A DNA stretch of 63,401 nucleotides, the filler included, from Hausera hauseri (taxonomy: Eukaryota), in NCBI GenBank assembly GCA_046269625.1. It is 9 parts of 9 records of this genome, joined end to end, with 100 filler letters (N's around TTAATTAATTAA, not from the genome) between each part and the next. Parts side by side here need not be neighbours in the genome. Positions count along the whole stretch, not along the records: positions 54,794 to 63,401 come from JBJURY010584333.1; 8 more parts are not named here. One strand, 5' to 3'. Made by a program: the position numbers and the translations under genes. The notes below the pieces were generated by a model. That model did no database searches. It had not been told where the DNA came from and saw nothing but the letters and a program-made list of their open reading frames with translations. Below are positions 22,775 through 63,401 of the stretch, piece after piece. Each line of letters opens with the position of its first letter. Position 1 is the first letter of the stretch.

Positions 22775-23499
22775 GTATCCAGGCCACTTTAAGAGAAACT
22801 GTTTATCCTTATTATTGCCTTTTCTCCTGAGATTAGATTGAATCCNNNNNNNNNNNNNNNNNNNNNNNNNNNNNNNNNNNNNNNNNNNNTTAATTAATTA
22901 ANNNNNNNNNNNNNNNNNNNNNNNNNNNNNNNNNNNNNNNNNNNNTGGGTTCGTGTACCCTATATACATTGTTGGACCATTATATCTCAGAATATTTCGA
23001 ACAATTCCGTATTCTTTACGAATTAATCGGTATTGTATGGAGCATATTTCCTCTAGTCACGTTACAGAATGTCTGTAATAATTCGTGGGTTACTTCGCAT
23101 TTTACTGGAACTGTTTGATTACTTTTAGCGTCTATTATGCGTATTTTTATCCACTGATTATATTCTAATTCTAACCTGCTTGTTACTCAAATTCAACGTC
23201 TACCACTTGAATCCAATTGATCTTGCAATTATTCGATTATTATCACATCTAGCTGCGTCTCATTCATTCTATGTCAGTTAGATTTGTATATAAATTTCAC
23301 TCTTTGTATGCTGGCTTCGTTAATACCCGCCTTGCTTTTTAATTAATATATAATATCTTCCATGTGTTCCCGAATCTTCAACTAAGCATTCGGTTTGTTT
23401 TCCGATGATTTAATATGCAACCATAGTTTCGTTCGTTAGGATTTCTTATGTCCCCTTCCCGTGAATTACGTGGATTGCCACCATATATTGGATTGACAC

Positions 23500-26400
23500 T
23501 TAAATTATGACATAGAAATTTACGCATCTCTTGCATTTACTGGAGTATTTTATTCGATATTGTATTTTATTCAATAGTAAATCTTCAGATATCACTGTTG
23601 GATATTGTATTTTTGTACGATTTCTTGTTCTGTCATCTGTTATAATACATGGCATTAGCATGAGAATTAGAAACGAGAAACATTTGTTCATTTCGAATTT
23701 TTTATGAACTGGTTTTTCATCCATTATTTTCACACTAACGGCTCTGACAAATTCATATTCACCTTTGAGTTTGCTTTTTTTAACAGCTGGTTTGCATATA
23801 TTCACATGGATTTTGAGTATAGAATTATTTTTACGACAGATGTTAGGTAAATCTACCTTTTCTACTTCATACGGTCCTTTATAAGGCATATCTAACTTAG
23901 ACGTTTTACCGTTTTTAATTGCCGTTGAATACAGCATTACTTGGTCACCTATACTAATTTTTGGCTGTTTGGTCTTTTGGTCGTAATACTTTTTACATCT
24001 TACTTTATAATCTTTCTGATTTTCACCAATCATTTTATATGCTAACTGTAGGTGTTCCTGCATTAACTGCTTATAATCTTCTACTTCCATTAGGTGTGAA
24101 ATGAGTTTCACATTAAAATCTAGATCGATTGGTAATCTTGCGTCCCGTAGATACATTAAATAAAAGGGTATCTCTTTAGTAGCTTCATGAACCGATGTCC
24201 GATTTACGAAAACACATGCATTGATATATTCGTCCCAGTTGTCTTGTCTAGTATTTACTGCCATTTGTAATTTGCCTTTTAAATCTCCAATGTACCTCTC
24301 GACCATTCCATTATTCTCCGTGTTTCGTGGCGTGGATGGTAGTTTTAATATCTTCAGAATGTCGTACATGGATTGCATTACCGTTCCGGTTAAATTTGAC
24401 GCTTGGTAAGTTAAGAAGTTTCTTGGGGCTCCATAATTAAATATTATATTCTTTACGAATTTTTTAGCGATTGTGTCCGCCTTCATATCCGCCATTGGTA
24501 GGGCAACAACCCATCTGGTGAAATTGTCAGCGAAAACTAAAATAAATCTGTCTTCATTTTGTGTCAGCGGTAATGACCACGTTATATCCATTGCGGTAAA
24601 CTCGAATGGCGCTGGGGGGTTGTCCCATACTTTTAGTGGTGCTTTGAATTTTGATCCCGTGTTTTTTCGGGTAGCACAAAGTTTACAACTATCGCACCAT
24701 TCCTGTACATTTTTCATTATCGTTGGCCAGAAGTATTTCCGTTTTAATTTATTAAGAGTCTTACTGGCTGATTGGTGACCACCTAGCAGTTTATCGTGAT
24801 ATTGAGTCAATAAAACTGCTCTATTTTCTTGGGAATTACTAAGGCAGGTCCGTTTTGATGAATAAAGTATAAAAATCCTTCTTTTTCTTCGTAAGCTTCA
24901 CTGAATCGGGCCAGGTGGCGGATTAACTCTCTGTCAGCTGGTATGGCTTTGTCTTTTATATATTTCTTAATGGCCCTTATTTCAGCATCCTCATTTTGGT
25001 TTACCTTAATTCTTTCTACGGACCCATCCATACTCCATACAGCTGCAACGACAGCTTTTTCTGTTTCTGATTTATGGGGTATTCTATATAAATAATCCGC
25101 GTTTGCGTTTCGCGATCCGGGTTTATATTGGAAATTCAGTGTAAAAGGCTGTAACTTTAGAGCCCATCGTAGGAGTCTGCTATTTGGATTCTCATGCTGC
25201 TTTAGCCATTGAAGTGGTCGGTGATCGGTGTAAATTAAGAGAGGTTTATTCTCACTGATATACAACGAAAATATTTCTAGGGCAAATATTACTGCTAATA
25301 GTTCTTTCTCTATCACCGCGTACTTCCTCTGGTGTTTATTGAGTTTTCGTGAAGCGTAAGCTACTGGATGTTCCTTACCGTCTTCACCTTTTTGTGACAA
25401 CACTGCTCCTACTCCGTAATCATTTGCGTCCGTTGCTAAGATAAATGGTTTGGTCATGTCAGGATAGATTAGTACAGAAGCAGTTAACAGTCTATCTTTT
25501 AAATATTCAAAAGCTTGTTGGCATTCGTTCGTCCAAATAACCTTGTCTAGTTCTTCACGTAATAGTTTATATAGAGGTTTCGAAAGTTTGCTAAAATCCT
25601 TTATAAATCTTCGATAATAGTTTGCCAAACCTAAGAATTGACGTAATTCTTTAACCGTACCTGGCTTCGGAAAGTCTCTTATTTTTCCTAAAAGCTTGTC
25701 TTGCAGTTTCACACCATATCTATCTACTCTATGTCCGAGGAAATCTACTTCCGTTTGAGCAAATGAACATTTCTTTGGGTTTATTTTTAGGTCCCTTATT
25801 TCACATCTATCGAAGAGATCCTGTAGATCCCTTATATGTTATTGAAAATTTGGTGATGCTATTATTACGTCATCAATATATACAATGGCATGTGGGGCGT
25901 CTAATAGCAGGAGTTTTGTCCCTCTCTGGAATGTTAGCGGTCTATTTTTTAACCCAAATGGCATCCTATTAAACTCCCATAGCCCTTCTCCGATTAAGAA
26001 CGCTGTCTTTGATTTGTCTTCTTCTTTCACCTCTACTTGCCAATAACCCTTTTGCAAATCAATCGTTGAGAATATTGTTAATCAATGTAGTCTATCTAAT
26101 ATTTCGTCAATCTTTGGTAACGGGTGTGTATCCGTCTCCGTTATTTTGTTTAACGCTCTACAGTCCATACAAAATCTCATATTTCCGTCCTTTTTTGACC
26201 ATCACCATTGGCGCTGTCCATGGGGAACAACTTTGTCAAATTATCTCGTTTTCTCTCATTTTTTTATTATTTTGCATGCTTCCTGTTTTTTATCGTATGC
26301 TAATCGATATGGTCTTTTCTTTTTCGGTTTATCTTATCCATCCTTTAACTTAATGGCAAGTTGTATTATATTCATTGTGCCTATATAGTAATCATTTTGT

Positions 26401-27044
26401 GCAAATCGATTGTTATTCTTCTCCAGCAATCCGATTAGCATCTTCTTCTCTTCCTTACTTAAGATTTTGCATTTCTGTAACCTCTCATTCTAATTGATAT
26501 TCGTGGTTTTATTTCTTCCTTTGTCGCCGTTTGATTCCCTTTCCAGTTTTTCTATCACTATCTTTTCTATTTTATCTACGTCTGAAATTATTGAGCAGAT
26601 TTCTTCTTTTATTATTTCTTCAGTGGTTGTTACTTTCCCAGTCTAGTATCCTTTCGTAATCGTTTTTCTTTCTTTATCGTATTACAAATTCGTAAGTGGA
26701 CTTTTCCATCTCTTACTTTGTCTACGTGAGGGGCGATTAGAACTTCATATTTTTCCATAACCTGTAGGAATGGTTTAAAATATATAACCACCGTACTTTC
26801 TATTTTTCCAGGAACCACTATCTCGGATCGTGGTGGAATCGTGATATCTTTTGTTAGAGAAACTGTTCCGTCGCTACTATCTTCATTGAACGTCTTAAGT
26901 TGGCATGTTTTCACATCTATATAAACATTTTCCAATTTATTTAGTATATCACATCCGATTAAAATTTCACTAGTCAAATTATCTGCTATCCTTATAGTAT
27001 GTTTCAAAATTTGTTTGCCTATCTTAACTTTGTCGTCTAAGACC
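23500..27044 (-). mobile_element. Ty3/Gypsy pol (PR end, RT, RNase H, integrase), frameshifted
   Basis: GYWQV..KTAF..MPFGL, YIDD, TDA..YGVGAVL, EKELLA, TDHRPL, H..GH..C..C and NGMVER. RT-RH-IN order. Confidence 0.92.
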
Positions 27045-36599: not shown

Positions 36600-37476
36600 A
36601 CGACAGAGATATTTCAGCAACTACACCGCAAAAGTACAGTGTATGTTCAGCGACAAATCTACGAGTCGTGATCTGAATAACCGGTTTTTGATGAGTCCGT
36701 AAAAGAAATGTGGTGCTATCGATGTCAGTGTTATGGTTCTCAGCTCCAATTCATGGCCATGTAGTACACAGGAAAAGAGTGTTCTAAACCAAGAGCCAAT
36801 TACTTTTTATCAGTCATTCATCGAAATTTTCAGTACAGCTCATACCGGAAAAGAGCTTAGTTAATGCTTCAATGTAGGAAGAGGGGTCTACACATCAAAT
36901 AGCCATATTAGTCCTGTTTAACAAAAGTCTTTCTCATTCCGTTCAAGATATCATGTGTGCAACTCCATTAGATTTCAATATTGTCAGTCGGATTCTACAA
37001 GTATTTCTCCGAGGAAAGGTATTAATAATCAATAATTCCAAACATTCCCTCGAGTACACATCTAAAATGGAGGCACCTTTAAACTTAGAAACAGAAGAAG
37101 TTCCAGACATTAGTCAAGATACCGTCGTTTATTTATACACCGATTATGAAAACAAAAGAATTCTGGTCAATCTGGATTTACAGTTAAAAGGAGAAACAAG
37201 GCTAGAAGTGGAGAAAGTCGTATCGCGATTTGACATCGATTGTAAAATGGCAATTGAAGCATGTATCGTCCGAGTGATCAAAACGAGAAAAACGTTAAAA
37301 CATCAAGAATTGGTCGTGAAATGCTCGAACAACTTTCATACAAGTTCAGTCCTCGAGTCGCACTGATTAAGCGATGCATATCGAGTCACATTGAGAAAGA
37401 GTGTCTCAAACGAGACAGCAACTGCAGACACGCACCAAATTCTTGCCCAATTATTGAGTCAAAGTTCCTGAGATAA
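36600..37476 (+). pseudogene. Cullin (Cul1-like) C-terminal processed pseudogene
   Basis: MFSD, VLSSNSWP, HTGKEL, AIEACIVRVIKTRKTLKHQEL and IKRCI..IEKE.L.R; no visible introns; frameshifts. Confidence 0.85.
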
Positions 37477-38798: not shown

Positions 38799-39815
38799 AT
38801 GGAAACCTTTATTGGAAAATACGAGAGATACTTTGACTTCATAAAGATGTCGGAGACGGACCGGGAAACTGCGATCCTGTGCCTATTTGTGGACGAGGCA
38901 TAGGAAAAATACCATTTAATGAGCCAGAAGGTAAAAGGTTACCAAAACCGGTTGACGAGGGCCTTTGAAAAACCCACAACGCTGTGTGGTGATCTGCGGG
39001 AAGCATTGAACTACAAAATGAATGGGTCAGAACCTGATGCCTACTTTAACAAAATCGAACAGCTGGTGAAGGGCATCCTCAGCCACAAAATAGCAGCGGA
39101 AGCTCTAACAGAGGAATTAATGATCCACTGTTGCGACATTCCAGAAATGAGAAAGGAAATCTACCGCAGTGACGAAAAAAGCGTCGAAGAAATCAAAGAG
39201 AAAATACGGAAAGTCGACGAAGTGACAACAAAGACGTAAGAAATAAACACAGTCAGAGAATACACTAGAGATAGTCGACAGAGTTACCGAGATGTGATGG
39301 TACATAAATTTGACAAACAAAGACAGAAAAGAAGGGATTTCATACTGCACAATACACAGGTAAAGAGTAAGATAAAATGCTGGTCATGCCAGAAAAAAGG
39401 GCATGCAAGTCGGACATGCAACCTCCAACAATTACCAAGATGTTTTGGTTGCGGAAAAGAAGGACATATTAATAGGAATTTCCCGGAAAGAAAACCCATA
39501 ATCTGGTATGGGTGCGGTCAGCAAGGACACATAGGACGAAAATGCATAAACATAAAATGCAATCAATGTCACAATAGAGGGCACAGGGAAGAAGAGTGTT
39601 ATACAAAATTGAACAAGAGCAGAAGGGAACAAAATAGGTATACCGACAATTTCAAACTTGCGGGATATGGTCAGAAAAGATATGGAGAAAGGGCGAACAT
39701 CAGGCATGCATGCGTTGCAAATAATGATGAGGACTATGAAGAATCCATCACAGAGTCGACAAACCCAAAAGGCAGAGCCTCGACAGAAGTGGAGCTAATC
39801 GGTGCATTACATTAG
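38799..39815 (+). mobile_element. LTR retrotransposon gag with tandem CCHC zinc knuckles, disrupted
   Basis: CWSCQKKGHASRTC, CFGCGKEGH, YGCGQQGHIGRKC and CNQCHNRGHREEEC. Confidence 0.85.
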
Positions 39816-45652: not shown

Positions 45653-48600
45653 TTACTGATTCTGACTGATATGTATTCGAAGGGGTTTTTGAAGGAAAAT
45701 GTCCTTTATATTTAATTTTTTTGTTATTGTTTTTCCTTCTTCCTCAAATTTCATTAAGTAATTGTTATTCCTGAATATTCTTATTATTTCCCAAGGTCCA
45801 TGATATTTTTTTTGAAATACTCCAGGGTTGTTAAATACTCTTATAAAAACTTTATCCCCAATTTTTAGAGAAGGTATATTTCTTCCTTTTAAGTGATTTT
45901 TCTGTGCAGCAAAATATTGATCCTCATTATAGGCTATTTCTTCTTTCTGTTTTTTTGATATATTTGAGATATTTTTTTGATACTCTTTGAAGGTTTCTAC
46001 ATATTTTGGTGACTCCCCTGAGTCCATAGGAATATTTAATTTTCTGCCAAAGAATATTTCAGCAGGGCTGAAACCTGTTACAGAGTGTTTCGCATTATTG
46101 TAATGGAGTTTAAAGACTAATAAGGTGTCTGACCACTCGAATGTTTTTTCTGCGATGGATGCAATGCTGTCCTTCATAATCTTGTGAACACGCTCAAGAA
46201 CCCCGTTTGATCTTGGGTGATAAACGGCTGTTTTTCTGTGTTGAATATTTAACTTTTTAAAGTATTGTTCAATTTCTTCTGAAGTAAAATTTGGACCGTT
46301 GTCTGAAAGTATAATTTTTGCAACGCCAAATTTTGAAAAATATTGATTTAACTGTTTTATTATTGTGGTAGAAGTTGTGTTTGCAAGAGGTATGGCTTCA
46401 AGATACCTGGAATAGTGGTCAATAATAGTTAAGATAAAGTGTTTTCCATCATGAGAGCGAGGAAGCTTTCCAACAATGTCAATGGCCACTAATTCCCCTG
46501 GAGCTAAGTCTTTCTTAGGAATCTGTTCTGGTATTGTTTTATTAGTTTTAGATTTATTTTCTAAGCATTTTGAGCAATTTTCACAGTAGTTTTTTATATC
46601 TAAATACATTCCTCTCCAAGAGTACTTCTTCTTTATGAAGTCATAGGTTTTTTTTGTGCCAAAGTGTGGCATATGAGCTAGGTCTAAACAAGACTTTATT
46701 AATGCTGAAGGAATGAGAATTCTATTCAAAATTATTTTCTTTTTTGATTTGTTTTTTGGGGGTTTAATTTTTTTCATGACTAGATTGGTGTCACTAGCTA
46801 CAAAGTATTGCTCCTCTATTATTTTATCCTTATCTTTTAATTTTTTTCTGATTATTTCAATTTTAGAGTCTTTTAACTGTTGGTCTAGTATAGTATTTGT
46901 ATCTAAAACATTGTCAGTAGCGAAGATATTTATATTGTTAATTTCTAAATCCTCTTTGGGCATCCTAGATAGATAGTCAGATGGATTTTTGAAACCTGGG
47001 ATGTGTTCTATGCTATAATCAAACTGCTGTAGGTAAATCAACCATCGAGCAACAATATCTGGCTGTTTGTCCATTTGTAAGTGATGCGTCAAAGGCTTCG
47101 CATCAGTGAGAAGTGTAAACCTTTTTCCATACAACTGCTCATAAAAATGTTTGCAAGAAGCATATATTGCAAAAAATTCTCTCCTTATTGAGGGATATCT
47201 AGACTCAGCAGGGCTTAACTGCTTTGAAAAGAATTCTATGGGATAGAACCTTCCCTCATGTTTTTGCATGAGAATCCCACAAATGGAGATTTTTGATGCA
47301 TCACAAACCAAATACATAGGTTTATTTTCATCTATATTTTTTAATGTTGGTCCATCTAGAATTAAATCTTGCAATCTCTCAAAAGCAGCCTGACAACTAT
47401 TACTCCAAAAGAAGGGAACATTTTTTTTTGTTAAGTTCACAATGGGACTTAAAATTTCTGCATAATTTGGAATCATATGGCGAAAATAATTTAGCATCCC
47501 TATGAAGGTTTGAGTTTGTTTAACATTTTTTGGAACTGGGAATTTGTTTACTTTGTTCATATTATCATTTGATGGTGAAAATCCATTTTTATCAATTTTA
47601 AATCCTAAATAAGTGATTTCTCTTTGACACAGCTGCAATTTTTTTGGATCAAGTGTGAGATTAAATTTTGCAAGCTTATCAAATACTTTTTGAAGCATGA
47701 TTTTCATCTCTGGGATTGAGTTGGCAGCAACTATGATGTCATCGACAAAGTACTGCACATTGGGACCTTTTAATTCACTAATACATTTTGTAATTAGTGT
47801 GTGAAAGTACGATGTGGAATTTTTTGCGCCAAAAAAAAGCCTGTTTGGATGAAAATTTCCAAACTGACAGCAGAAAGCAAGCTTATGTTTATCACATTCT
47901 CTCAGTTGGATTTGAAAAAAAGCTGATTTTAAGTCCAGTACACTGTAAAACGTTTTTCCAGCTATACTGTGTAAAATTTCTGAAATTTTGGGCAGGCATA
48001 TTTTAAATGGCTCAGTAATACTGTTTAGCAATCTGTAGTCTACCACCATTCTAAATTTTAGTTCTTTATCATTACTGTTAGGGAGGGGTTTCTTTTTGAC
48101 AAAAAGTATGGGGAAGTTGTAATTGGAAGTTGATTCTTCAATAATTCCAGCTTCTAATAACTGAGTTATCTCTTTATGTGCAAACTCTCTGGCTATTTTT
48201 GGAATTGGATATGGCTTTGTTTGGAGGGGAAAGTCGTGGAGTAATTTAAATTCAGGTTGTACAGCTCGCGTAGAACCAAGTGTCCGATATGATTTGGAGA
48301 ATACTCGAAAGTTTTTCATTAGCATTTCTATCATATCTTCTTTGTCTGTTTCATTTAGGTGTTCTAACTTGAAATCACTTTTTTCTAATTCATTTTTTCT
48401 TAATTGTTCTATTTCTGTTAAATTTATATTATTTATTTGAAGAAGCTCAGTTTGTTTGGGAGGAACATTTTCTATTTCATCCAAGATTTCAATTTTACCC
48501 ATTTTTGTATTTTTTCTAATTTTTATTTTTTCACTTGTGTTGTTTTCAATTATAGTATAGAAACTTGAGTTATCTGTTAGTAAATTAACTGATTGTGACA

Positions 48601-49459
48601 GGTCATATCCTAATTTTGTTACCTTGGGAGAAAACATAACTTGCTGTTTTTCTTTATTTTGATTTTCAGTTGAGACTTTTAGTTTTATTATTCTGAATGA
48701 ATTTGGTTCTAAAGTAATGCTGTTGCAAATCTTAACTATTTCAGATTTTTTATTTTTATTTTTTGGGTTTATTTCCTTTGCTATACAATTTGTAGTTTGT
48801 TCAGGGGCTGACTCCTCAAACTCAAAACAAAAATTTCCCATTATTAATTTTTTATTTGGTGTATCTATTAGTATTTTATTTCTCTGTAAGAAATCATATC
48901 CTAGGATTATTTTATACTGGGATCTCCAGTCAGATTGTGTAATGAAAAATTGGTTTTCAAACCATTTGGTCTTAATTTTAAATTTGATGTTTACTGCAGA
49001 CAAATATGGGATTGTGGATTGATTAAGTGTGTGTATCCTAACTGCTCTGCTTAAGTATTCGACTTTAGTTGTTTCTTTTATTTCCTCTATTACACTAGGC
49101 TGGACCAAACTGAGATTCGCCCCCGTGTCAAGTAAAGCGGCTACCTGTTTATTGCCAAATCTGATATTAATTATGGGAAGACTGTTATTAGAGTCATTAC
49201 ATGACATTACATATAAAGGTGTAATTTCTTTTTCTACATTTTGTTTATTTATTAATTTTGAACTATTATTTTCTTTCTGAAAGTTAGGTTGAATTATATT
49301 TTCTTTTTTTTGTTGTCTATTCACCTTTTCATACCTCTCAGAGTTATATTTTCTAGTTTGACTTTGGTTTCTGTTTTTATAATTCCAATTTTGTTTTTTA
49401 TATTGGTAATGGGTTCTTACATTTCTATTGGAATTCCTATACATTCTGTAAGAACCCAT
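45653..49459 (-). CDS. pol: Ty3/Gypsy Pol polyprotein (PR-RT-RH-IN), open reading frame intact
   Basis: LLDTGA, LDLKSAF, FVDD, CDAS, H..H..C..C, DIVG...SDNG...ER; 1268 aa without interruption. Confidence 0.96.
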   Translation of the reverse strand: MGSYRMYRNSNRNVRTHYQYKKQNWNYKNRNQSQTRKYNSERYEKVNRQQKKENIIQPNFQKENNSSKLINKQNVEKEITPLYVMSCNDSNNSLPIINIRFGNKQVAALLDTGANLSLVQPSVIEEIKETTKVEYLSRAVRIHTLNQSTIPYLSAVNIKFKIKTKWFENQFFITQSDWRSQYKIILGYDFLQRNKILIDTPNKKLIMGNFCFEFEESAPEQTTNCIAKEINPKNKNKKSEIVKICNSITLEPNSFRIIKLKVSTENQNKEKQQVMFSPKVTKLGYDLSQSVNLLTDNSSFYTIIENNTSEKIKIRKNTKMGKIEILDEIENVPPKQTELLQINNINLTEIEQLRKNELEKSDFKLEHLNETDKEDMIEMLMKNFRVFSKSYRTLGSTRAVQPEFKLLHDFPLQTKPYPIPKIAREFAHKEITQLLEAGIIEESTSNYNFPILFVKKKPLPNSNDKELKFRMVVDYRLLNSITEPFKICLPKISEILHSIAGKTFYSVLDLKSAFFQIQLRECDKHKLAFCCQFGNFHPNRLFFGAKNSTSYFHTLITKCISELKGPNVQYFVDDIIVAANSIPEMKIMLQKVFDKLAKFNLTLDPKKLQLCQREITYLGFKIDKNGFSPSNDNMNKVNKFPVPKNVKQTQTFIGMLNYFRHMIPNYAEILSPIVNLTKKNVPFFWSNSCQAAFERLQDLILDGPTLKNIDENKPMYLVCDASKISICGILMQKHEGRFYPIEFFSKQLSPAESRYPSIRREFFAIYASCKHFYEQLYGKRFTLLTDAKPLTHHLQMDKQPDIVARWLIYLQQFDYSIEHIPGFKNPSDYLSRMPKEDLEINNINIFATDNVLDTNTILDQQLKDSKIEIIRKKLKDKDKIIEEQYFVASDTNLVMKKIKPPKNKSKKKIILNRILIPSALIKSCLDLAHMPHFGTKKTYDFIKKKYSWRGMYLDIKNYCENCSKCLENKSKTNKTIPEQIPKKDLAPGELVAIDIVGKLPRSHDGKHFILTIIDHYSRYLEAIPLANTTSTTIIKQLNQYFSKFGVAKIILSDNGPNFTSEEIEQYFKKLNIQHRKTAVYHPRSNGVLERVHKIMKDSIASIAEKTFEWSDTLLVFKLHYNNAKHSVTGFSPAEIFFGRKLNIPMDSGESPKYVETFKEYQKNISNISKKQKEEIAYNEDQYFAAQKNHLKGRNIPSLKIGDKVFIRVFNNPGVFQKKYHGPWEIIRIFRNNNYLMKFEEEGKTITKKLNIKDIFLQKPLRIHISQNQ

Positions 49460-49471
49460 TTCTAGTTTAAA
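49408..49471 (-). promoter_or_regulatory. Programmed -1 ribosomal frameshift signal between gag and pol
   Basis: T TTA AAC heptamer (49471-49465) directly before the gag TAG; the -1 frame is the pol frame; 14-bp perfect stem 4 nt downstream. Confidence 0.88.
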
Positions 49472-50472
49472 GAATTCTTTCTTTCAGTTTTATAATAAGG
49501 ATGTTGCCTCCTAAAATTGCTTCTGGACCTTTGAGAGTTATATCTATCATTATGCCTGAAATTTTGTCTGAAATTGTTTCTAAAATTTGGTCGATAACTT
49601 TGACTGAATGGCCTCTGCCTTGAATTATTTTGTCGACCATGTTGGAAATTGTCAAAGCTGCCTGGAAAGTACCAACAGTCTTTCATTAAATGCTTTTTCC
49701 CACAGATTAAACATTTTATGTTTTCTGAAGGTTGATTATTTTGCTGAGAATTTTGACTATGTGCTACCATATGATTTACATTTTTGCTTTCTTGCATTTG
49801 TTCAAGTTTTTTTGTTAAATTCATTATTTGTTTATTCGCTTCCACCTGACTATGTAATAATGTAGTTAGTTCAGTAGAGCCGATAATGGAGTTTGTCTGA
49901 TAAGCAGGATCAGAATGTGCCTCCTCTATGTCTATAGCTTTTTGTATGGCCTCCTCAAAACTTTTCGGGCTTAATTTTTTTAACTCTATTCTGATATCAC
50001 CCCTTAATGCTTCATAAAACTTATTAAACTTGGTTTTCTCACCCAATTCTTTTATCTGACTGTCTGAATTATCATTAATATTCAAATAAGCATTGGCAGA
50101 GTTTTCAATGCATTTTGCTAAGTCTCTTACAGACTGAGTGGGTGTTTGAACAATTTTTGAAAATTCTTGTTGCAGTTCAGAAAAAGTTTTAGCTTTAATA
50201 AATTTTTTCTTTAGTAAATTTTGTAACTCCTCAAAATCATTTGTTGAGCTTGCTATTGGGTCATTACTTATGAATTCCAGTGCTTTTCCTTGACAATTCA
50301 ATTTCAGAATGAAAAGTTTTTTTTGTGCTGGCCATTGCTCTAATTCTGCAACAGAGTTTATCTGATTTAGAAAGAATTTCACATTTTCTCCTTCATTGCC
50401 ACAGAATGTAGGTAAGGAACTGGCTAAGCTAGTTTCAACTAATTGTGGTTTAGGCATTTTCTTAGTTTTCAT
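49462..50472 (-). CDS. gag: Ty3/Gypsy Gag
   Basis: LPTFCG CA-like N-terminus and CLICGKKHLMKDC zinc knuckle, directly upstream of pol. Confidence 0.9.
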   Translation of the reverse strand: MKTKKMPKPQLVETSLASSLPTFCGNEGENVKFFLNQINSVAELEQWPAQKKLFILKLNCQGKALEFISNDPIASSTNDFEELQNLLKKKFIKAKTFSELQQEFSKIVQTPTQSVRDLAKCIENSANAYLNINDNSDSQIKELGEKTKFNKFYEALRGDIRIELKKLSPKSFEEAIQKAIDIEEAHSDPAYQTNSIIGSTELTTLLHSQVEANKQIMNLTKKLEQMQESKNVNHMVAHSQNSQQNNQPSENIKCLICGKKHLMKDCWYFPGSFDNFQHGRQNNSRQRPFSQSYRPNFRNNFRQNFRHNDRYNSQRSRSNFRRQHPYYKTERKNSLN

Positions 50473-52798: not shown

Positions 52799-54608
52799 TA
52801 CCTCCCCCGAAACAGAAAAATTTAGAGCCGTCCATCCGTCTAGAATTATTGTTAGGAAGACTCTAGAAATATTTTGAGGAAACTGTATCCTTAGTTGGCC
52901 ACTATGGTACATTTCATTACATTCACATACACATGTTATACACTATATTATTAATTATATAATATACACACAACTTTCACATGATTTGCATACATATATA
53001 TTATTACTTCTAATACGATTTCTGTTATATTAATTATTTTTCATATTTTTTTTTCATCATTACACAGTTATTACATTTGTTATCTTGATTAAGTATTAAT
53101 TAATATTGTCCTGATTACATATTATACTATTACTATTACATTAATTATTTTGCATACATTTTTTTCATTACACAGTTATTACATTTATTATCATGATTAC
53201 ATATTAATTAATATGTGCCCTGATTACATACTTTAATATTTCTATTATCTCTTGGTAAATACTGACCATTGAACACTTTCAATATAGTTGCTATTATAAT
53301 TTAAAGATTTGATTTCCAAAAATTTTCTTCTAATATTTTACACAGTAATTCAGTACAGTAATTTTATTAACAGACCTACATGCATGTGCTATAAAGGTAT
53401 CAGTTTTAAGAAGATCTTGATTTGCATGAAAGATTCTTCTAGACATTCTTTGTTTCAAGAAATAAGAATCATATGTGCAAACTCTGAGATTTGTCTCAGT
53501 TAATTTTTTATATATCTTTCAAACTGGTAAGGTATTTATAGCTGATTTGTTGGTTGCCAATTTATTTTTAATGACTGACTGAATGTTTGGCCTGAAATAT
53601 ATTTGCAAGAGTACTTCATTATTGATGTTTAGTTTTTTATTTGCCCTTTCCATAAATGTTGGCGGGGGGGGGAATACTTTTTTTTTTTGATTAACCCTAT
53701 CTTTACAATTTTAGTGAAGCTTCATTCTTAATAATGTCTCTGTCCTTTTTGCTACAATTTTTTCTTTCTAGTTATATCTATTCGTTATTTGCTATTTCAG
53801 AGTCTTATTTTTAGTATTTGTTATTATTACCTATTGATAAATACTTATCGCCCATCCATTTTGCATTTCTTGTAGAGTTGTTTTAAAATTTTCCTAGAAA
53901 ATTTTCCCTTGACTTTTGCCCACCGAAATCATTCAATACATTATATTGACAAATTGCATCTGTGGTCGCTATAAAGGTACTAGTTATAAGAAGATTTTCT
54001 GGTTTGCAATATGTTTTTTTTGTCATAAAAAAAAACCGGGGAAAAAAAATGTGCAAACTATTTCTCCCATAAACTAATAAGGTATTTATAGACGTTGAGT
54101 TGCCTGTCAATCTATTTTTTAATGATTCTGATCTCAATGAGAAGGTTAATTATTTTTTTTTTTTTTTTTTTTTTCCTCCAAGACATCCCATGAAGAGGGA
54201 TGATATTGCTAGTTTCCTTTTTCTTTTCATTTTTATCATTAAATTTTGAATTTTTATATTTTTTGCTGCTAAATCCTTCACTGATTGTTTTGGCGTTTGT
54301 ACAATATTGGAAAATTGCTGGGATAATTGAGAAAAGTTTTTAGTGATTGAGAATTTCTCTCTTAACTTCTTTTGTAACTCCTCTGGGTCATTGGTAATGC
54401 TGGCGACTGGATCATTGCTGATGAATTCCAGTGCCTTACCTTGACAATTGAGTCTCAAAATTAAAACTTTTTTCTGATCCACCCAATCCTCCAATTTTGC
54501 TACTGCATCTAACTGATCGAGGAAGAATTTTACATTTTCCCCTTCATTACCACTAAACGTTGGGAGCGAGCTTGCCAAACTTGTTTCTATCAGCTGCGTT
54601 CTAGGCAT
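52799..54608 (-). mobile_element. Internally deleted non-autonomous relative: truncated gag, no pol, PPT
   Basis: 54150-54608 aligns with the N-terminal half of Gag 49462-50472; 53630-53700 matches 45295-45360. Confidence 0.75.
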
Positions 54609-54793
54609 TTTTTCTAATTTCTTTTAAATTATATTTCTAACAATTAATCTACTATTATTCCTATACACACAAATTATTACTTAAAACAATATCNNNNNNN
54701 NNNNNNNNNNNNNNNNNNNNNNNNNNNNNNNNNNNNNTTAATTAATTAANNNNNNNNNNNNNNNNNNNNNNNNNNNNNNNNNNNNNNNNNNNN

Positions 54794-57700
54794 GCAGTTT
54801 ATAGCGTTTGTTTGGTCTTATTTCCGTTTTAGCTACTCTCTGAATTGATATGACCTCCTGCTTGACGTTTTTATTTATATAAACTGTGGTTGGTATAGTT
54901 TTGGTAACTTCATAAGGTCCTCTGCTTGTTCTGGTAAGTTTAAGAGATGTGCCTTTCTTTGCTACTGGGTAGTGTAAGTAAACCCAATTTTCTGGTTCTA
55001 GGTCGTGTGGTTTAGACTTCTTGTCATATTGCTTTTTATATTGTTCGTGGTATTCTCTGGATAATTCCTTGGCCTTTCCCAGCACTTGTGTAATCTCAAT
55101 TGCAATACCTTGACAAAATTTTGCTCTAAGTCTTCCGTTCTGGTTGTATACGGAATCAGTCCTAAATCTGAAGCAGTACAGCTTCTCTACCGTACATCAT
55201 GAAAAACGGGGTGAATCCTGTTGCAGGATATGGGATAGTATTAATGGCTAACTGTGTCCCTTCCAAGAGATCATCCCAATCTTTCTGGTCTTTCGTGACT
55301 ACTGTCTATAAGATTTTTATAACTGTCGCGTTCATCCGTTTAACCATTTTATTACATTGGAGATGATAAGCTGTAGTAGTTAGTCGTTCAATTTCGAAAA
55401 TTTTGGTAATTTTTTCCAAAAATTTGCTTGTAAAGTTCCTCCCTCAGTCTGTCAAAATTTGTTCAGGTGGGCCATATCTGCAAATAATCTTCCGGACAAA
55501 TAATTCTGCTAAAGTCTGGGCCTTTTGGTCTACTAGCGCTATAAGCTCGACGAAATAAGTCAATCGGTCTACATATGTCAAAATATATTTATTTCTTTTG
55601 TGAGTGGTAGGTAACGGTCCTACAATATCCATGGACATTACTTGCATTTGTCTGTCGGGCTTATTGATGGTTTTAAGCTCCGCGACGTAGTTTTTCACTT
55701 TTCTCTGTTTGGTTGCGCATACTTCATAATAATTCACCCAATTCCTCACGTCAATGTAAATGCTCGGCCAGTAATATTTATTTAGTATTCTTTCCAAAGA
55801 CTTCTTCCACGATATGTGTCTGACTAGATATGAGTTGTGTGCGGCCATTAGCACTTCTGCACGTAATCCTTTTGGTATGACGACTAATTTTCGTCCCTTT
55901 CTTTTGTAGTACAACACATTTTCGTGGTTGCAATCTCCTTCGACGCAGTATTTGTGTCCATGTCGTCGTAGGTGTTCCCGTAACTGATGACCCTTTTGTA
56001 GTTTGTTGGTACCAACGAACTCGATAATTTGTTGTATAACTTTGTCGTTTCTCTGTTCGATAGAAATCTTCGATGCCTTCTCCAGTATGAGAGTCCGTTG
56101 TCTCTCTACTAAGTTTTCGAGGTGGGCTTTCCTCATTACCGCAACTGCGTTTGTTTTAGTTTTAAGTCTCGAGAGTGCATCGGCATCGGCACGTTTATTT
56201 TCGGGTTTGTATTGGAATTCGGTATTATACCGTGAGATCTCCTCGATCCATCTATGGAGTTCACAGGTCGGATTATTTGCCCTACCTTTTAAGGTCGTAA
56301 CTGCTTTGTGATCGGTAACGATTAAAATCTTTTGTCCATAGACGTACACGTAAAAATGTAGCAGTGCTTCTTCCTCTGCTAACGTCTCTAACTCCGTAAC
56401 AGAATAGTTTTTCTCGGCTTTCTTTAGAGACGGACCTCCGTATGCGATCGAGTGTCCTAGCTCCTTTTCTTCTCGTTTCTGAGATAATTAGTATCCCATG
56501 CCTTCCTTACTGGTGTCTGTTTTGATTATGAACGGTAGGTTTAAGTCGGGATATCTTAAAACAGGTTCACTGCTTAAAATCTTCATCATTTCATCGAAAG
56601 CTTTTTGTTCGACAGGGGTACAAATGTGCGTTTATCTTTGAATTATCTGGCACATAGGTAGCATAATACTCACATAATCCCAACAGTGTCTTAGTTCCTT
56701 TTGATTCTGGGATTCTATGTAGTTCGATATTTTATTTAGCAGTAATTTATCCGGCTTTGATCCTCCTTCTCCGACTATGTGTTCAAGATAAGACACAGCA
56801 TTTTGAACCCATTTGCATTTCTTATGGTTTAGTATCAATCCAGCTTTCTCCAATCTCATGAGTGTACCTTCAGTGTCCTTAAAATGACCGTCTTCCGTTT
56901 TTGACGCAATCATTACGTCATCTATGTAGGCGAATGCGTGTTCTAGTACCATTAGCATCTTGTTCATCATGCAAGTAAAGATGGCTGGTCCGGTAGTTAT
57001 TCCAAATGGCATGACATTAAATTCATATATACCGTCGTGTGTCTTAAACGCGGTTTTGTAACGATCGTCTTTCTCTATTTCTACTTGCCACTATTCGGAC
57101 TGCAAATCAAGTGTGGTGAACCATTCAGCTCCAGAAAGCCTATCCAAAGCTTCCTTTACCGGTGGTAATGGGAAAGATTCCTTCATTATAAGCGTATTTA
57201 ACGCTCCATAGTCGATACAAAATCCGTGCTTAGTGATATTTTTCTTCTTAACCATGAGGATAGTTAAATACCAAGATCTATAGCTTGGTCTGATTATGTC
57301 GGTCTTTAACATTCGTTCAACCTCCTTGGTTATCTCTGGCCTTAAAAAGTGTGGAGTGGGTACAATTTCTGCATCTTTTGATCTTCTAAATCTATTTTAT
57401 CGTTAGATCCAGGCTTTTTCTTAAGTGGGATCGTGAGTCTTAAGGTTATGACTCGGCCAATATCTTCTTCATCTTTCGCGATAATCGAACGATAACGACA
57501 AAGTAATTCGTAAAATCGACAATATGATTCCGGTGAAACTTTACTCTTAAATTGGGGTGGAAATTTGGTACATTTATAAGGTTTATCTTCAATGGTGACT
57601 TATGATACTCTATACGTGTGTCCCAAAGTGGTATTGTCATATAGTTTGATCGGAGAGAGTGCATTATTCGCTATTCTGATCGGTACGCGCCCTATTCATA

Positions 57701-58200
57701 CTTTCGTTAAAACATTACTGAGTATGATGTTTCGATTAAGCGATTCCTTAGGTTCAAAATATACTGGCTGATCGTCATCTTGACGTATCTGTGCATATAT
57801 TAATATTTCGGTCCTGGGCAGTATGTTTTAATCCAAGGGAATTCACACCTCTCCGAATTTTCTGTCTTTAGTGGTTTAACTCCTTTTATTGGGCCAAGTT
57901 ATATTAATTTCCATGCATTAAAATCTATTGCTATGTTGGATAGTTGTCTCAATAGATCGCACCCCAATGCTACATCATCCGTTAATTTTTCCATTATTGA
58001 AAATTTATGATGAAAAGATTGTACCATTATACAAATTTCTGGTCTCCATCGGAATTTGCTTTTAGACAATTGACCGAAGGCTCTGACACTTCCTGAGTCT
58101 GTTGTGTGAGGTAGATATAATTGTTTTCGTAGGAATTGCGGTATTGAATCATACTTTTCCAATGATATTTTGGATCCTGTATTTATCACTGCGTAAACTT
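54794..58200 (-). mobile_element. Decayed Ty3/Gypsy pol (PR-RT-RH-IN)
   Basis: VINTGS, CIDY..LN, TLDL, MPFG, YIDD, TDHK, MDIVGPLP and ILTD; many stops and frameshifts. Confidence 0.92.
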
Positions 58201-58890
58201 ACCAATCTTCTAATTGAATTTTTGCAAAGAGCCTATCTTCGATTACCGTACCGTAATAACTTGGTGCTATTTGGGGGTGTCGTATCGCGGACACCTTATA
58301 TCCGTTGGTGGTAACTTCAGTGGTTCCAACTGGTTGATCGATTAATTGTCTTAACTCTCCAATTGGGTATAGTTTGTTATTCGTGTCATTTGCATTTTCT
58401 ATTCCCTGGTTTCGTACTGGCGGCTGGATTTCTTGTTTCCGGAGATTGTGTGTGTCGCAGCTTCTGGTAAATGTCGACTACACTTCGTTTGGTCTAGGTA
58501 TTTTAGGTGAATAAATTATACCGTGATCGTCGACTGCCGAGCAACGATGTGGGGCAGACGTTCTTTCCGTTTCGTGGGTCTTACGCAATATCTTGTAGTG
58601 TTTTGTTCCTTCGTAGGGATCCTCTAGACTAAACGGCGTCCGATAGATGCTTGTCTGGCACGAACTCATAGATTGTTTCTCACAGTCTTCATATATAGGT
58701 GCCGTTGGCGGCAGTATAGGTAATGGTAGTTTCATAACATAGTAGTTTTTGTGCCTGTTCAACTTGGAGTTAATGTCTCCTCCCTTAAGCTCGTTATCGT
58801 CAGAGTTATTTCTTCGTGTACTAATATCTATGAATTTTTCCTGTAATCGAACATGTGTCTTTTATGTTTTCGATTATGGTATCTAACATG

Positions 58891-60760
58891 TCACTCAACG
58901 TCTGCTTTCCATCTATTCTCTTCATAAGCCTTTAAGAATTTACCGATAAGTGTTATAATAGCTGCTAGAATCTTACACAAGAATCCTGTCAAAATGAATA
59001 TTTCGTATACATTTGTAATCGCTTGAATTATTGCTTTGACTAGTTGAATCAAGAAATCAATTGCTAGGAATCCTAAGGCGGCTTCTCCAAATATCAGGAA
59101 TCTCCACCAAATTTTGTACAATAATTCCGTAGTTACTCTTCGGTAGTAGTTGACATTGAGCAATGATTCCAACTTGGCTTGATAACGCGAGTCCTCTAGT
59201 ATTGTATGCATAGCTCTGTTTAATTCATGTGTGCGCTGACGGAGGAAAGCGAGAAATTGTCTCAGCGCCTCTACTTCTTTCGATCGGTAAATCCCTTTTG
59301 CGGCGGTGTCTTGAAATTTATCATCGGTTATTCCTTTTATTAAATTTGTTCCGGTTAATTTGGTAGGTGGCGTAATTATGCCGCCATTTGGTAAACTTAC
59401 ATAATCGGTTTCAATACGTCTGAACATTAGTTCGCCTAGACTAGTCTTGCCGTCTCTCAGAATTGTAGGCTGAGTAGAGTTTCCCAATAATACTCTAGTA
59501 ATTGGTGTTACTAACCTTGGTACGTCTTGGTATATTACTGGAAGTTCCTGTATACACCTCTTCTCTTCAACATTAATAGGCACATCTTTCTTTTCACATT
59601 CATAGGTTAGTATGACTTTTCCGGTTACCCGTCCAAAAACGCCTTCTTTCATCAGAATTATTGGTGATACTAATTCAGTATTAGCATATATTAAAGATAG
59701 TTTAGTCCACATGACATTCAGGTCCAATTTGCAATCATTTGTTATCATTTTGTGATATAACTCGGCTATTCCAGCTTGTCCTTTATAGAAGAAATAGTCG
59801 TCTCTGTTTCTCAAATAATTCCCAATTCGAATATCTTGAGTCTCGAGCTTAAACATCCTGGCGTTTATCTTCGTCTCAGCAACAAAGAATGCATCATAAT
59901 TGGTGGCGTAAATTATGACATCGCATCTTGTGAGTACATTTTTCTTCACAAATGTCAATCCATAAGGATCAGAAATCAGTATAATAGGTGTGGACTGTTC
60001 GGCCACATCTCGCGTTTTAGAGTAAGTTTCCGTGCTAATTGTGTATCGTTTCCCTGTCATCTCATTAAATGTAAGTTCTTTAATTATGATAAAATTGCAA
60101 TCGGTCTTGGCTGGGGGTTCCCAAATTACCACGTAGCTTCTAAAAGAGCAAGTACCTTCCTGAATGTGGCACTTCTAGTTTTCCGTGTAAAGTTTAGTAA
60201 CGCTATGGAACATTACCTTTTGTAGGCGTATCTCGGTTTCGTAAATATCTACCACTAAGATGTTCGACTCCAGTACCTTTCCAGCATCGTACTCCGTGCC
60301 ACGACAATGTACGGTATGCATATCTAGTCTCCCTGCTGCCACTTTGTATATTCTGATTATCTTTCCTTGTTGCATTTCCAATTCCATGCCATCCCATTTT
60401 AATCTTCCAGCCTCTCTAGCTTGCTTAGAGTGCTGACGTTCTAAGTTCATCGGAATTGGTGATGTTGTGGCGTTATTATCGATGAATGTCCATGTACCAA
60501 TCCACAATGGAAAATGCTGCGAGATCGTCGCAACGTACATTCTATTTCGTGTAATGTAACTAGTTTGCGTTGTTGATACATCACGTAATTTTCTCTTTTC
60601 TTTCTAATTTATGTGGTCTCGCGCCTTTACACATTTCTAAGTTCATTAATGAGTATTTTGGCCCAGTTTAAATTTGTCGCAGTCGTACACTGTAATAGCA
60701 CCCATTTGTCTTATTAACACATCACGGTTAAGAAGTTAATTAACCAGTTTGGTTCGTTTC
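58891..60760 (-). pseudogene. Chuvirus/Jingchuvirales-like class III (gB-type) envelope glycoprotein
   Basis: Across frames: VYDC; ECTLRRSRSIFHCGLVHGHS; AG...CRGTEY; C...GTC...VIWEP...CNF; GVFGRVTGKVILTYEC; CIQELPV...TPITRVL; GIY; C-terminal WWRFLIFG..TM helices. Confidence 0.8.
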
Positions 60761-60869
60761 CTCTATTATTTCCCGTTACGCTTCGTAACAAGTCTTCAAA
60801 TCTATTATTGCCAAGGAAGGGCCTATTTTGACGTTCTTTTTTTTCAAATAACTTCAACCAGTTTACTTC

Positions 60870-63368
60870 TCAAGGCAGTTTCTTGGCAGCCTTCCTTGCC
60901 AAGCTAGTGGTCTTATTAAATTCGTTTTTTCGGACAGGATTGTTTTTAACGGCAAAATATAGTAACACTTTTCTTAACTCCTCCACGGTGTTTTCTACCA
61001 TAATTTTCTCGATTACCACTTCATCGCTTAAGGTGCTTTGGGATAATTTACACCGAAAATTTTTCATGGCTTTGGCTGCATTAAATATAGCTTTTCCTTT
61101 CTCGTCTAGTATATCGCCACTGAGACTAGAGTGGTTTACTATACCTATCAATTTTTTCATGAGTTCATTCAGTTCTTTGTCATCTGCACTGAAGGTCGGT
61201 ACGGACATTTGTCTCAATTCTCTAATTAAGTCCCCATTATAATCGATTTCTTGTATATTTCGCAGCCTACCGACAGGATGCTTCTGTTTTGTTACAGTCG
61301 GTGCGGTATCACTGGTTGGTACTAGATTCTTATTACATTGTTCCTTGTCTTCATCCGTTTTCAAGTATTCGAAGTACATTGCTACATCTCAAATTCCTAC
61401 AATTCGTCCTACCCACTGTTCAGTCTTCGCCTTTCTGGTGGCCACATTTTTTGTTTCGTCGGTGGGAATTGTTACTACTATCCGGTTTGTTTCATCTGGA
61501 ATAATTACAACTTCTATTAGTAGTTACAGTTCGTCTAATATTCTTCCTCTAAAATAAAGTCTACAGTTTAGCTCATTTGTATGACCATTACTCCTTAACC
61601 GCAGTGCTACATCCTTCACAAAGGACCGCTTAGTAAACTCGTGCTCCTTCTCGTCCATCCAGCCAGACGTTTTTCTTACTTTAATCGTCTCTTCGGGCCT
61701 TGTCTTTAAGAATTGAGCATATTCTTTGATTAAAAGTTTTCGTGCAGAAATGTAAATCGTACCTCCGCTGGCTAATTTAGTTAGGGTGGGAACTAACTGT
61801 CTTAACTGATTTTCGGTAAGGTTTACCTAGGGTAACTTAATTAGTTTCCTTTCAGTTTGTGCCGAGCTGAGAAGCATCTCCACACTGAATCTCTGATCTG
61901 GTGGACACGTCTCTGTTTCATACAAGAACACTGGAGTTTTCGGGTTTTCGGTGACTATTGCATTTACATACGCGTCCCATTCGTTTTCGTTTTTGGGTAG
62001 TCCGAAATTAATCTCCGGAGTTTCTAACGGCCAGACTAAGTTCAAATCCTTTACTGATTCGCTTAGTTCCCGTAGTTTTTATTGCATTATAATTATTTTT
62101 GTGGTTCGGAAACAACGTCCGTTTCCGAACGTTTGGCGTAATACTGTTAGCAGCTGACATAATTCTTCGGCTGATATAAATCCTAGTTCTTGATAATTAG
62201 TTAGCTCAAAGGCTACGTCTCTTTGCCATCTTTGCACAAATTGTAACTTGTCAGCATTTTCTGCTTCTGTAAGAGCATACTTAATTTTATAGATTTCGAG
62301 TTCTTTAGTTAGTTCGTCTAATCTTACCGCTCTCTGTTTGGTTTTAATGCAAGTTTCTTCAACTTGTCGTATCTGTGGCAACAATTGTCTTATTTTCTCG
62401 TCACTAATTTCTGCCATTTTCACCATAAGCAATGCTAATTCAATCATCTCATTAATAATTTTTGAGTCTGGGTCTATCTCATAATGCAACTTTTTTACAA
62501 ACTTCGCCACCCATCCTTTCTTGTGGGTGGTGTAAGAACATCACTGCTTCTTCGAGGGCCGACTGATATTTTGGGAAAATATCTAAAGTTCTGAGATCTC
62601 AAACCGTTATCTCGTAGATATGTTTGGCCGTTAGATGTTGCATTTTTTCTAGGCGGCTTTTCTTAATCTTGGATAAAGTCACAAGTCAAATTCCGTTTTT
62701 GTATAAAATTTGTTTCTTCTATCATTTTATATATCTTAGAGTATTGTCATTTCTTGTTTCTTCTTCATAAAGGTTAATTTGCGCAATGCCTCAAATTGGG
62801 CCCGGATGTCAATCTCCCCCTTCATCGTATCTAAATTTCGTGCGTCTTCTTCTAAGTGTTTCTTTACTGTAGGCTCGCTCTCTGAAAATTATTTCCTGCG
62901 ACTTTCCACCAGTTTACTCAACCTCGTTATTACTCTGGACCTCTCATTCAATTGGTTAACTATTTCTGGTTTTGCCCATATTGCTTGGTCTAACGTTTTG
63001 TGAGCGTCTTCTAGTTCATCATATGGACCTTTAATAAAATCAATGATCTGACGGGCGTAGTTGAGCTCATCTTTATACTCATCAAGCTCGAGGATACAGG
63101 TCGTAATTATTTTCTGTGTTTCGTCATTATTCGTTTGCATAAATCTATTTCTCAGACTGCATATTCGCGATTTTTTTTCGGTTTCAATTTTAATCCGATT
63201 TTCCAGGCTTGTATATTGTTTTGTTGCGGTAGAAGCGATTTTTCTTATTTCCATTAAGGGTGGAATATCTATTGAGTCTATGCCTAACATCTCTAGATAA
63301 ATTTTATTTCGTTCTTTTACCGGCTTTTCCTTGAGTCGTTCGACTATGGCAAATCTAATTTCATTCAT
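60870..63368 (-). CDS. Series of unknown helical/coiled-coil ORFs (60870-61379, 61827-62045, 62079-62510, 62889-63368), possibly one decayed polyprotein
   Basis: All on the same strand as G and pol with similar composition; no family recognised. Confidence 0.45.
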
Positions 63369-63401
63369 GATGCGCTCTAAGTTACACGTTTTCTTTTTAA
63401 T

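Follow-up and report, generated by a model that had tools for sequence, protein, structure and literature searches.

A decayed Ty3/gypsy-type element of Hausera hauseri with a chuvirus-type fusion glycoprotein upstream of pol

Genes at the locus

We analyzed a window of 63,401 nucleotides from Hausera hauseri (GCA_046269625.1), made up of nine contigs joined end to end with eight N separators between them. The element described here fills the last of these contigs (JBJURY010584333.1; 54794-63401, 8.6 kb) and is read on the minus strand, where a long upstream open reading frame (ORF1) is followed by a chuvirus-type fusion glycoprotein (G), an in-frame stretch of about 220 codons, and a polymerase region (pol) with protease, reverse transcriptase (RT), RNase H and integrase (PR-RT-RH-IN). 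One contig end falls within the integrase and the other within ORF1, the coding span being at least 8.6 kb, and internal stops or frame breaks were observed in every gene. The types of element present point to an animal host. The following features were located, listed in coding order:

60720-63401, minus strand: ORF1, a single long decayed frame of at least 890 codons that continues past the window end (stop depletion in one frame)
58891-60705 (start approximate), minus strand: envelope, a chuvirus-type (Monjiviricetes, glycoprotein B (gB)-like class III) fusion glycoprotein of about 605 codons with 5 internal stops (PF24664)
58945-59082, minus strand: a pair of hydrophobic segments at the C-terminal end of the envelope (peaks of 2.05 and 2.54 in a Kyte-Doolittle 19-mer scan)
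58229-58861, minus strand: coding stretch of about 220 codons, sharing the protease frame, with a PTAP motif at 58708-58697
57902-58228, minus strand: degenerate aspartic protease of retroviral type (E 7.9e-5 with a local profile built from 13 gypsy proteases)
56404-57339, minus strand: reverse transcriptase and connection region of Ty3/gypsy type, with internal stops (RVT_1, E 3e-21)
56227-56487, minus strand: RT-associated RNase H (PF17917, E 5e-17)
54794-55878, minus strand: integrase truncated by the contig end, with an H2C2 zinc domain at 55878-55705 (PF17921, E 2.3e-13) and the core from 55656 (rve, E 4.9e-7)
54694-54793, no strand: separator between joined contigs (N44, 12 bases, N44 in the N-run map), where the element is cut, its 3' long terminal repeat (LTR) lying outside the view

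The frame map and the domain matches agreed with a first-pass annotation of this DNA, which had placed all frames on the minus strand in the order upstream ORF, G, linker and PR-RT-RH-IN. Its chuvirus-like glycoprotein of about 620 codons was likewise recovered, at a slightly smaller size. The 427-codon open frame at 58891-60174 matched Monjiviricetes_fusion (PF24664) with an E-value of 1.3e-35, and a translation with stops read through as X matched at 1.5e-36 across residues 92-608, with a score of 126 against a cut-off of 27 bits. Stop codons were depleted in G (5 in 604 codons, P 1.6e-13), and the protein holds 11 cysteines. Judged from hydropathy, the two hydrophobic segments are likely a membrane-proximal region and a transmembrane anchor; together with the PF24664 match they place G with the envelopes of the herpes simplex virus gB type, the chuvirus-related class III fusogens. 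Searches for relatives of G were negative for 3,175 candidates of near length and 5,098 longer ones, as well as for viral contigs, metagenome contigs, phages and PDB sequences; these searches are word-based and give weak evidence of absence.

The Ty3/gypsy assignment of pol, also made in the first pass, was supported by matches to RVT_1, RT_RNaseH, Integrase_H2C2 and rve and by the protease profile; Pfam alone gave no match for the protease. The best PDB matches of the RT were the Ty3 RT (4ol8, E 1.2e-43) and the Ty3-G Gag-Pol (7q5b, E 1.2e-42), followed by the next non-Ty3 entry at 1.2e-29 and by retroviral entries at 6.6e-12 or weaker. Across the PDB and Pfam sets the RT was thus nearer to Ty3/gypsy than to BEL/Pao, copia or retroviruses, no BEL/Pao family was present among the Pfam matches of pol, and the order PR-RT-RH-IN is that of gypsy elements (Metaviridae). 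Identity of the RT to the gypsy Pol proteins that we fetched reached 37% at most. The C-terminal part of the integrase is frame-shifted, and tblastn with gypsy Pol proteins extended to 55097-54870. The RNase H and the integrase are separated by about 117 residues, as compared with 113 in P0003 and about 400 in P0010 and P0034, which agrees weakly with the short-bridge "ancient" type. An RT tree of 46 rows, from which 12 hits with fewer than 300 aligned columns were left out and which included no known BEL/Pao reference, had been proposed as a check and did not resolve the position of the element, which sat on a long branch. A search for RT loci in viral contigs was negative. A second gypsy element in the window (45653-50472, minus strand, see below) has a pol about 24% identical to this one.

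The stop of G lies 30 nt from the pol frame, with env directly 5' of pol and within 2 kb of it. The intervening 58229-58861 stretch had been described as a short linker; its position was correct, but it is coding and belongs to the protease frame, as seen from 2 stops across 320 codons (P about 2.5e-8). We consider it likely to be either the cytoplasmic tail of the envelope or an N-terminal spacer of Pol. It matched no gag profile, Pfam family or ESM Atlas entry and contained no CCHC motif. Its PTAP motif, noticed post hoc, occurred in 0.6% of 20,000 shuffles and, if it lies in a tail, would fit budding of the ESCRT (endosomal sorting complex required for transport) type. G and the tail stand in different frames in the present copy, and from a single copy decay cannot be told from a programmed shift. 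A scan of all six frames of 54794-63401 for CCHC motifs was empty, in keeping with the earlier statement that no CCHC gag lies between G and the protease, while the identical scan picked up 5 such motifs in other parts of the window.

In ORF1, a part of 220 codons contained a single stop and one of 607 codons contained 5, compared with about 7 per 100 expected by chance; the probability for the 607-codon part is about equal to that for G. A frame-shifted patch was observed near 62800-62500. The first-pass annotation had reported unknown ORFs upstream of G, and the unknown coding content was confirmed, while the stop counts indicate one decayed frame and not several genes. Nothing significant was found for ORF1 in Pfam, PHROGs, NCBIfam or PDB. 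A search of 1.84 billion protein representatives returned 1 relative, P0063 (150 aa, 36% identity at residues 325-454); no relative with DNA context was found, and neither P0063 nor the frame of the G-protease stretch gave a usable hit in the ESM Atlas. Structure prediction of ORF1, also proposed in the first pass, was carried out by single-sequence AlphaFold2 on two parts and gave uninformative folds (predicted local distance difference test, pLDDT, 34.3 and 37.7), with which Foldseek returned 0 matches at E 0.001. The description of the ORF as helical has only such folds of pLDDT 34-38 as its basis, and its heptad (coiled-coil) score was no higher than that of shuffles. Two resemblances seen by eye were set aside: a capsid-like look of 61250-60720, unsupported by Pfam, PDB or the local profiles, and a ubiquitin-like look of about 61480-61700 (minus strand), for which no ubiquitin-like Pfam or PDB match was found.

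Continuity and copies of the element

From ORF1 to the integrase the frames share a strand and follow each other at distances of no more than about 30 nt, and the composition of the coding strand is alike throughout (A 0.36-0.39). The first pass had named a boundary by an LTR or target-site duplication at 58200-58890 as evidence against a single element; no LTR-like repeat or non-coding gap was observed between G and the protease, and self-comparison revealed no direct repeat longer than 22 nt.

Copies were assessed in one public sequencing run (X1; 15,501,002 contigs, likeness threshold 80%), which contains 0.39 of the sampled words; no RNA run was listed as containing the element. A total of 14,754 contigs fit at 80% or above and covered all bins (30 of 30), with a summed depth of 1,155-26,177. 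Most of these were diverged, with 442 at 99% identity or above, 1,456 at 95-99%, 5,054 at 90-95% and 7,802 under 90%, and only 0.02 of the matched material continued into unlike sequence. One diverged contig (345 nt, 58 differences) bridges the end of G (58595-58933), and another (78 differences) covers 58252-58759, ending just before the protease match. The diverged contigs are other copies of the element, which is therefore present in multiple copies, as judged from this one run. Since they cover every bin and one of them crosses the end of G, the layout looks like a family trait, and a repeated family is favored over chance nesting. The absence of an LTR or gap and the copy across the end of G also uphold the first-pass reading of a single Ty3/gypsy element in which a chuvirus-type fusogen precedes pol. 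The present copy looks old and dead.

Comparison with published elements and alternative readings

Our literature search on gag-env-pol retrotransposons with a glycoprotein brought up only the work of Chary and Hayashi (eLife 2026, PMC13524379). Ty3/gypsy elements with the order GAG-ENV-POL and a gB-type env are known from Nematoda, Bryozoa and Platyhelminthes (PMC13524379), the nematode order being attributed there to Sacco et al. 2022. The earlier suggestion that the inverted env-pol order is a novelty is not supported, given its publication for these three phyla. Because the layout is already published, our element most likely represents a new, decayed example of this kind. More specifically, we regard it as probably a dead copy of a repeated Ty3/gypsy family in which a chuvirus-type fusogen stands between a long upstream gene and pol. 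The upstream gene is likely a very divergent Gag, as favored by the single frame of ORF1 and its place where Gag would lie.

With the GAG-ENV-POL gB-type errantiviruses (PMC13524379) the element shares a Ty3/gypsy pol, a gB-like chuvirus-related env 5' of pol and multiple copies, and its span of at least 8.6 kb is similar to that of the bryozoan and flatworm elements, whose regions measure 12-18 kb with the flanks counted in. The published elements were, however, chosen as intact and their Gag was confirmed by HHpred, whereas the present copy is decayed in every gene and its ORF1 of more than 890 codons has no detectable Gag domain. The same work describes chuvirus-like glycoproteins adjoining gypsy pol in 114 arthropod elements, and its authors give the entry mechanism of gB-type errantiviruses as unknown. 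Glycoproteins of Jingchuvirales mostly adjoin gypsy and BEL/Pao copies that are fragmentary (Dezordi et al. 2023, PMC10084718), and the Anakin-type elements of Dezordi et al. are likewise LTR retroelements that captured a class III glycoprotein related to Jingchuvirales, but with a BEL/Pao pol, unlike the Ty3/gypsy type found here. Cer1 of C. elegans is a gypsy element with an oversized Gag of 690 aa that has no sequence similarity to capsid (CA) and was recognized by folding alone (PMC10309623), a precedent for a Gag that sequence searches miss. In contrast to our element, which has no CCHC motif and a fusogen 5' of pol, the Cer1 Gag has three CCHC fingers, and Cer1 has no fusogen and an extra ORF 3' of pol (PMC10309623). 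Two oribatid mites have elements of the order ENV-GAG-POL, with env upstream of pol and a short stretch between them as here (PMC13524379); in these the env is of F type and the stretch is a short gag, while the env here is of PF24664 type and no gag was detected between env and pol. The Tor elements (PMC4402516) were dropped as a comparison, their env lying after pol.

Several observations weigh against the GAG-ENV-POL reading with ORF1 as Gag. Pfam, PDB sequences, gag profiles and the CCHC scan revealed no capsid or nucleocapsid in ORF1. With three local gag profiles, each built from 8-10 gypsy Gag regions, the score of ORF1 was reached by 101, 117 and 4 of 300 shuffles, and the match to the last of these profiles was confined to a weak N-terminal stretch. 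At 890 codons or more, ORF1 also exceeds the Gag of Cer1 in length. The LTRs of the element lie past the contig ends, none being present within the 54794-63401 view, and none of the eight X1 pieces listed singly spans G to protease or the ORF1/G junction. X1 is possibly the source sample of the window itself, and its depth is not a copy number. For neither G nor pol did the searches turn up a close relative, so the link to the published GAG-ENV-POL clades is one of layout and not of phylogeny.

Other readings of the same genes were weighed against the GAG-ENV-POL interpretation. We consider it unlikely that ORF1 is an extra gene, such as a captured viral structural or regulatory gene traveling with env, with the true gag lying upstream past the window end. 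The lack of a Gag signal in any test and the length of more than 890 codons with the 5' end cut off would suit such a gene, and gypsy elements can carry large non-env accessory ORFs, for example CERV of Cer1 (PMC10309623). Yet ORF1 is a single frame and not a multi-gene cassette, viral nucleoprotein and matrix families were unmatched in Pfam, and the frame occupies the place of gag in the published layout (PMC13524379). A more remote alternative is an ENV-GAG-POL element, in which the stretch of about 220 codons between G and the protease would be a short degenerate Gag and ORF1 an accessory gene. That stretch is coding, lies in the protease frame and carries PTAP, and the short-gag version is published for the two oribatid mites, but all 6 of the mite elements listed have an F-type and not a gB-type env (PMC13524379), and the stretch has no gag profile, Pfam, Atlas or CCHC match. 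Chance nesting, with a chuvirus-derived endogenous glycoprotein gene beside an unrelated env-less gypsy fragment, would agree with the fragmentary LTR elements beside which endogenous Jingchuvirales glycoproteins mostly lie (PMC10084718) and with the lack of LTRs around both genes in view. We regard it as very improbable given the junction without repeat or gap, the even composition, and the X1 evidence of diverged contigs in all bins, a diverged copy across the end of G, and hardly any run-on into unlike sequence.

For the favored GAG-ENV-POL reading, a mechanism can be proposed from what is generally known of LTR elements and of class III fusogens, alongside the gene order, env and pol identities, decay and repetition that we observed. 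A single LTR-driven RNA would be translated into ORF1, env and pol as abutting frames, either as a polyprotein or by ribosomal shifts. The ectodomain of the envelope would pass into the secretory pathway and the C-terminal anchor would bring the chain back to the cytosol, so that the PTAP-bearing tail and PR-RT-RH-IN stay inside. Packaging of the RNA would fall to ORF1, fusion of the particle with neighboring, probably germline, cells would be mediated by the class III fusogen, and RT and integrase would make new insertions in the cells entered. The fusogen class suggests that the family may once have been infectious, as proposed in the first pass. A bolder version appears rather unlikely to us: a GAG-ENV-POL lineage in an unreported host group (e.g. 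an arthropod) with a giant ORF1-Env-Pol polyprotein, in which the ORF1 of 890 or more codons would be a Gag of a new, multi-domain kind that lacks a zinc knuckle and may include a ubiquitin-like module, and budding would use the PTAP of the envelope tail instead of Gag.

Few gypsy elements with the envelope ahead of the polymerase have been published, and the present one adds a divergent lineage to them. For such elements the question is how a secreted fusogen is expressed between two cytosolic proteins, and what their Gag is; a high-copy family with an oversized ORF1 offers a usable case, and one dead, truncated copy leaves the overall picture unchanged. What remains strange is the long ORF1 without a detectable Gag feature, as well as the lack of close relatives in our searches.

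Other contents of the window

The first contig (1-12524) is bacterial and ordinary in content, with a tRNA-Ser, a YoaA helicase and a polyhydroxyalkanoate cluster (PhaR-like, class III PhaC, acetoacetyl-CoA reductase and thiolase). The other contigs are AT-richer and contain many transposon remnants. The second gypsy element (45653-50472) has an open gag of 336 aa (Retrotrans_gag, one CCHC-type motif) and a 1,276-codon pol frame, PR-RT-RH-IN, that overlaps the gag frame; no env was seen, and decayed copies of its gag were observed at about 54000-54620. In a third, decayed gypsy pol (22946-27044, minus strand) the integrase frame runs on, near 23690, into hydrophobic sequence that resembles a signal peptide and may be where a downstream env starts; the three frames after it gave no Pfam match. 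A cullin fragment (36878-37366, plus strand; Cullin_Nedd8, E 1.4e-8) lies amid transposon remnants and is possibly a pseudogene or a captured piece. A short frame at 39240-39815 (plus strand) holds several CCHC-type zinc knuckles and is probably the gag end of another retroelement.

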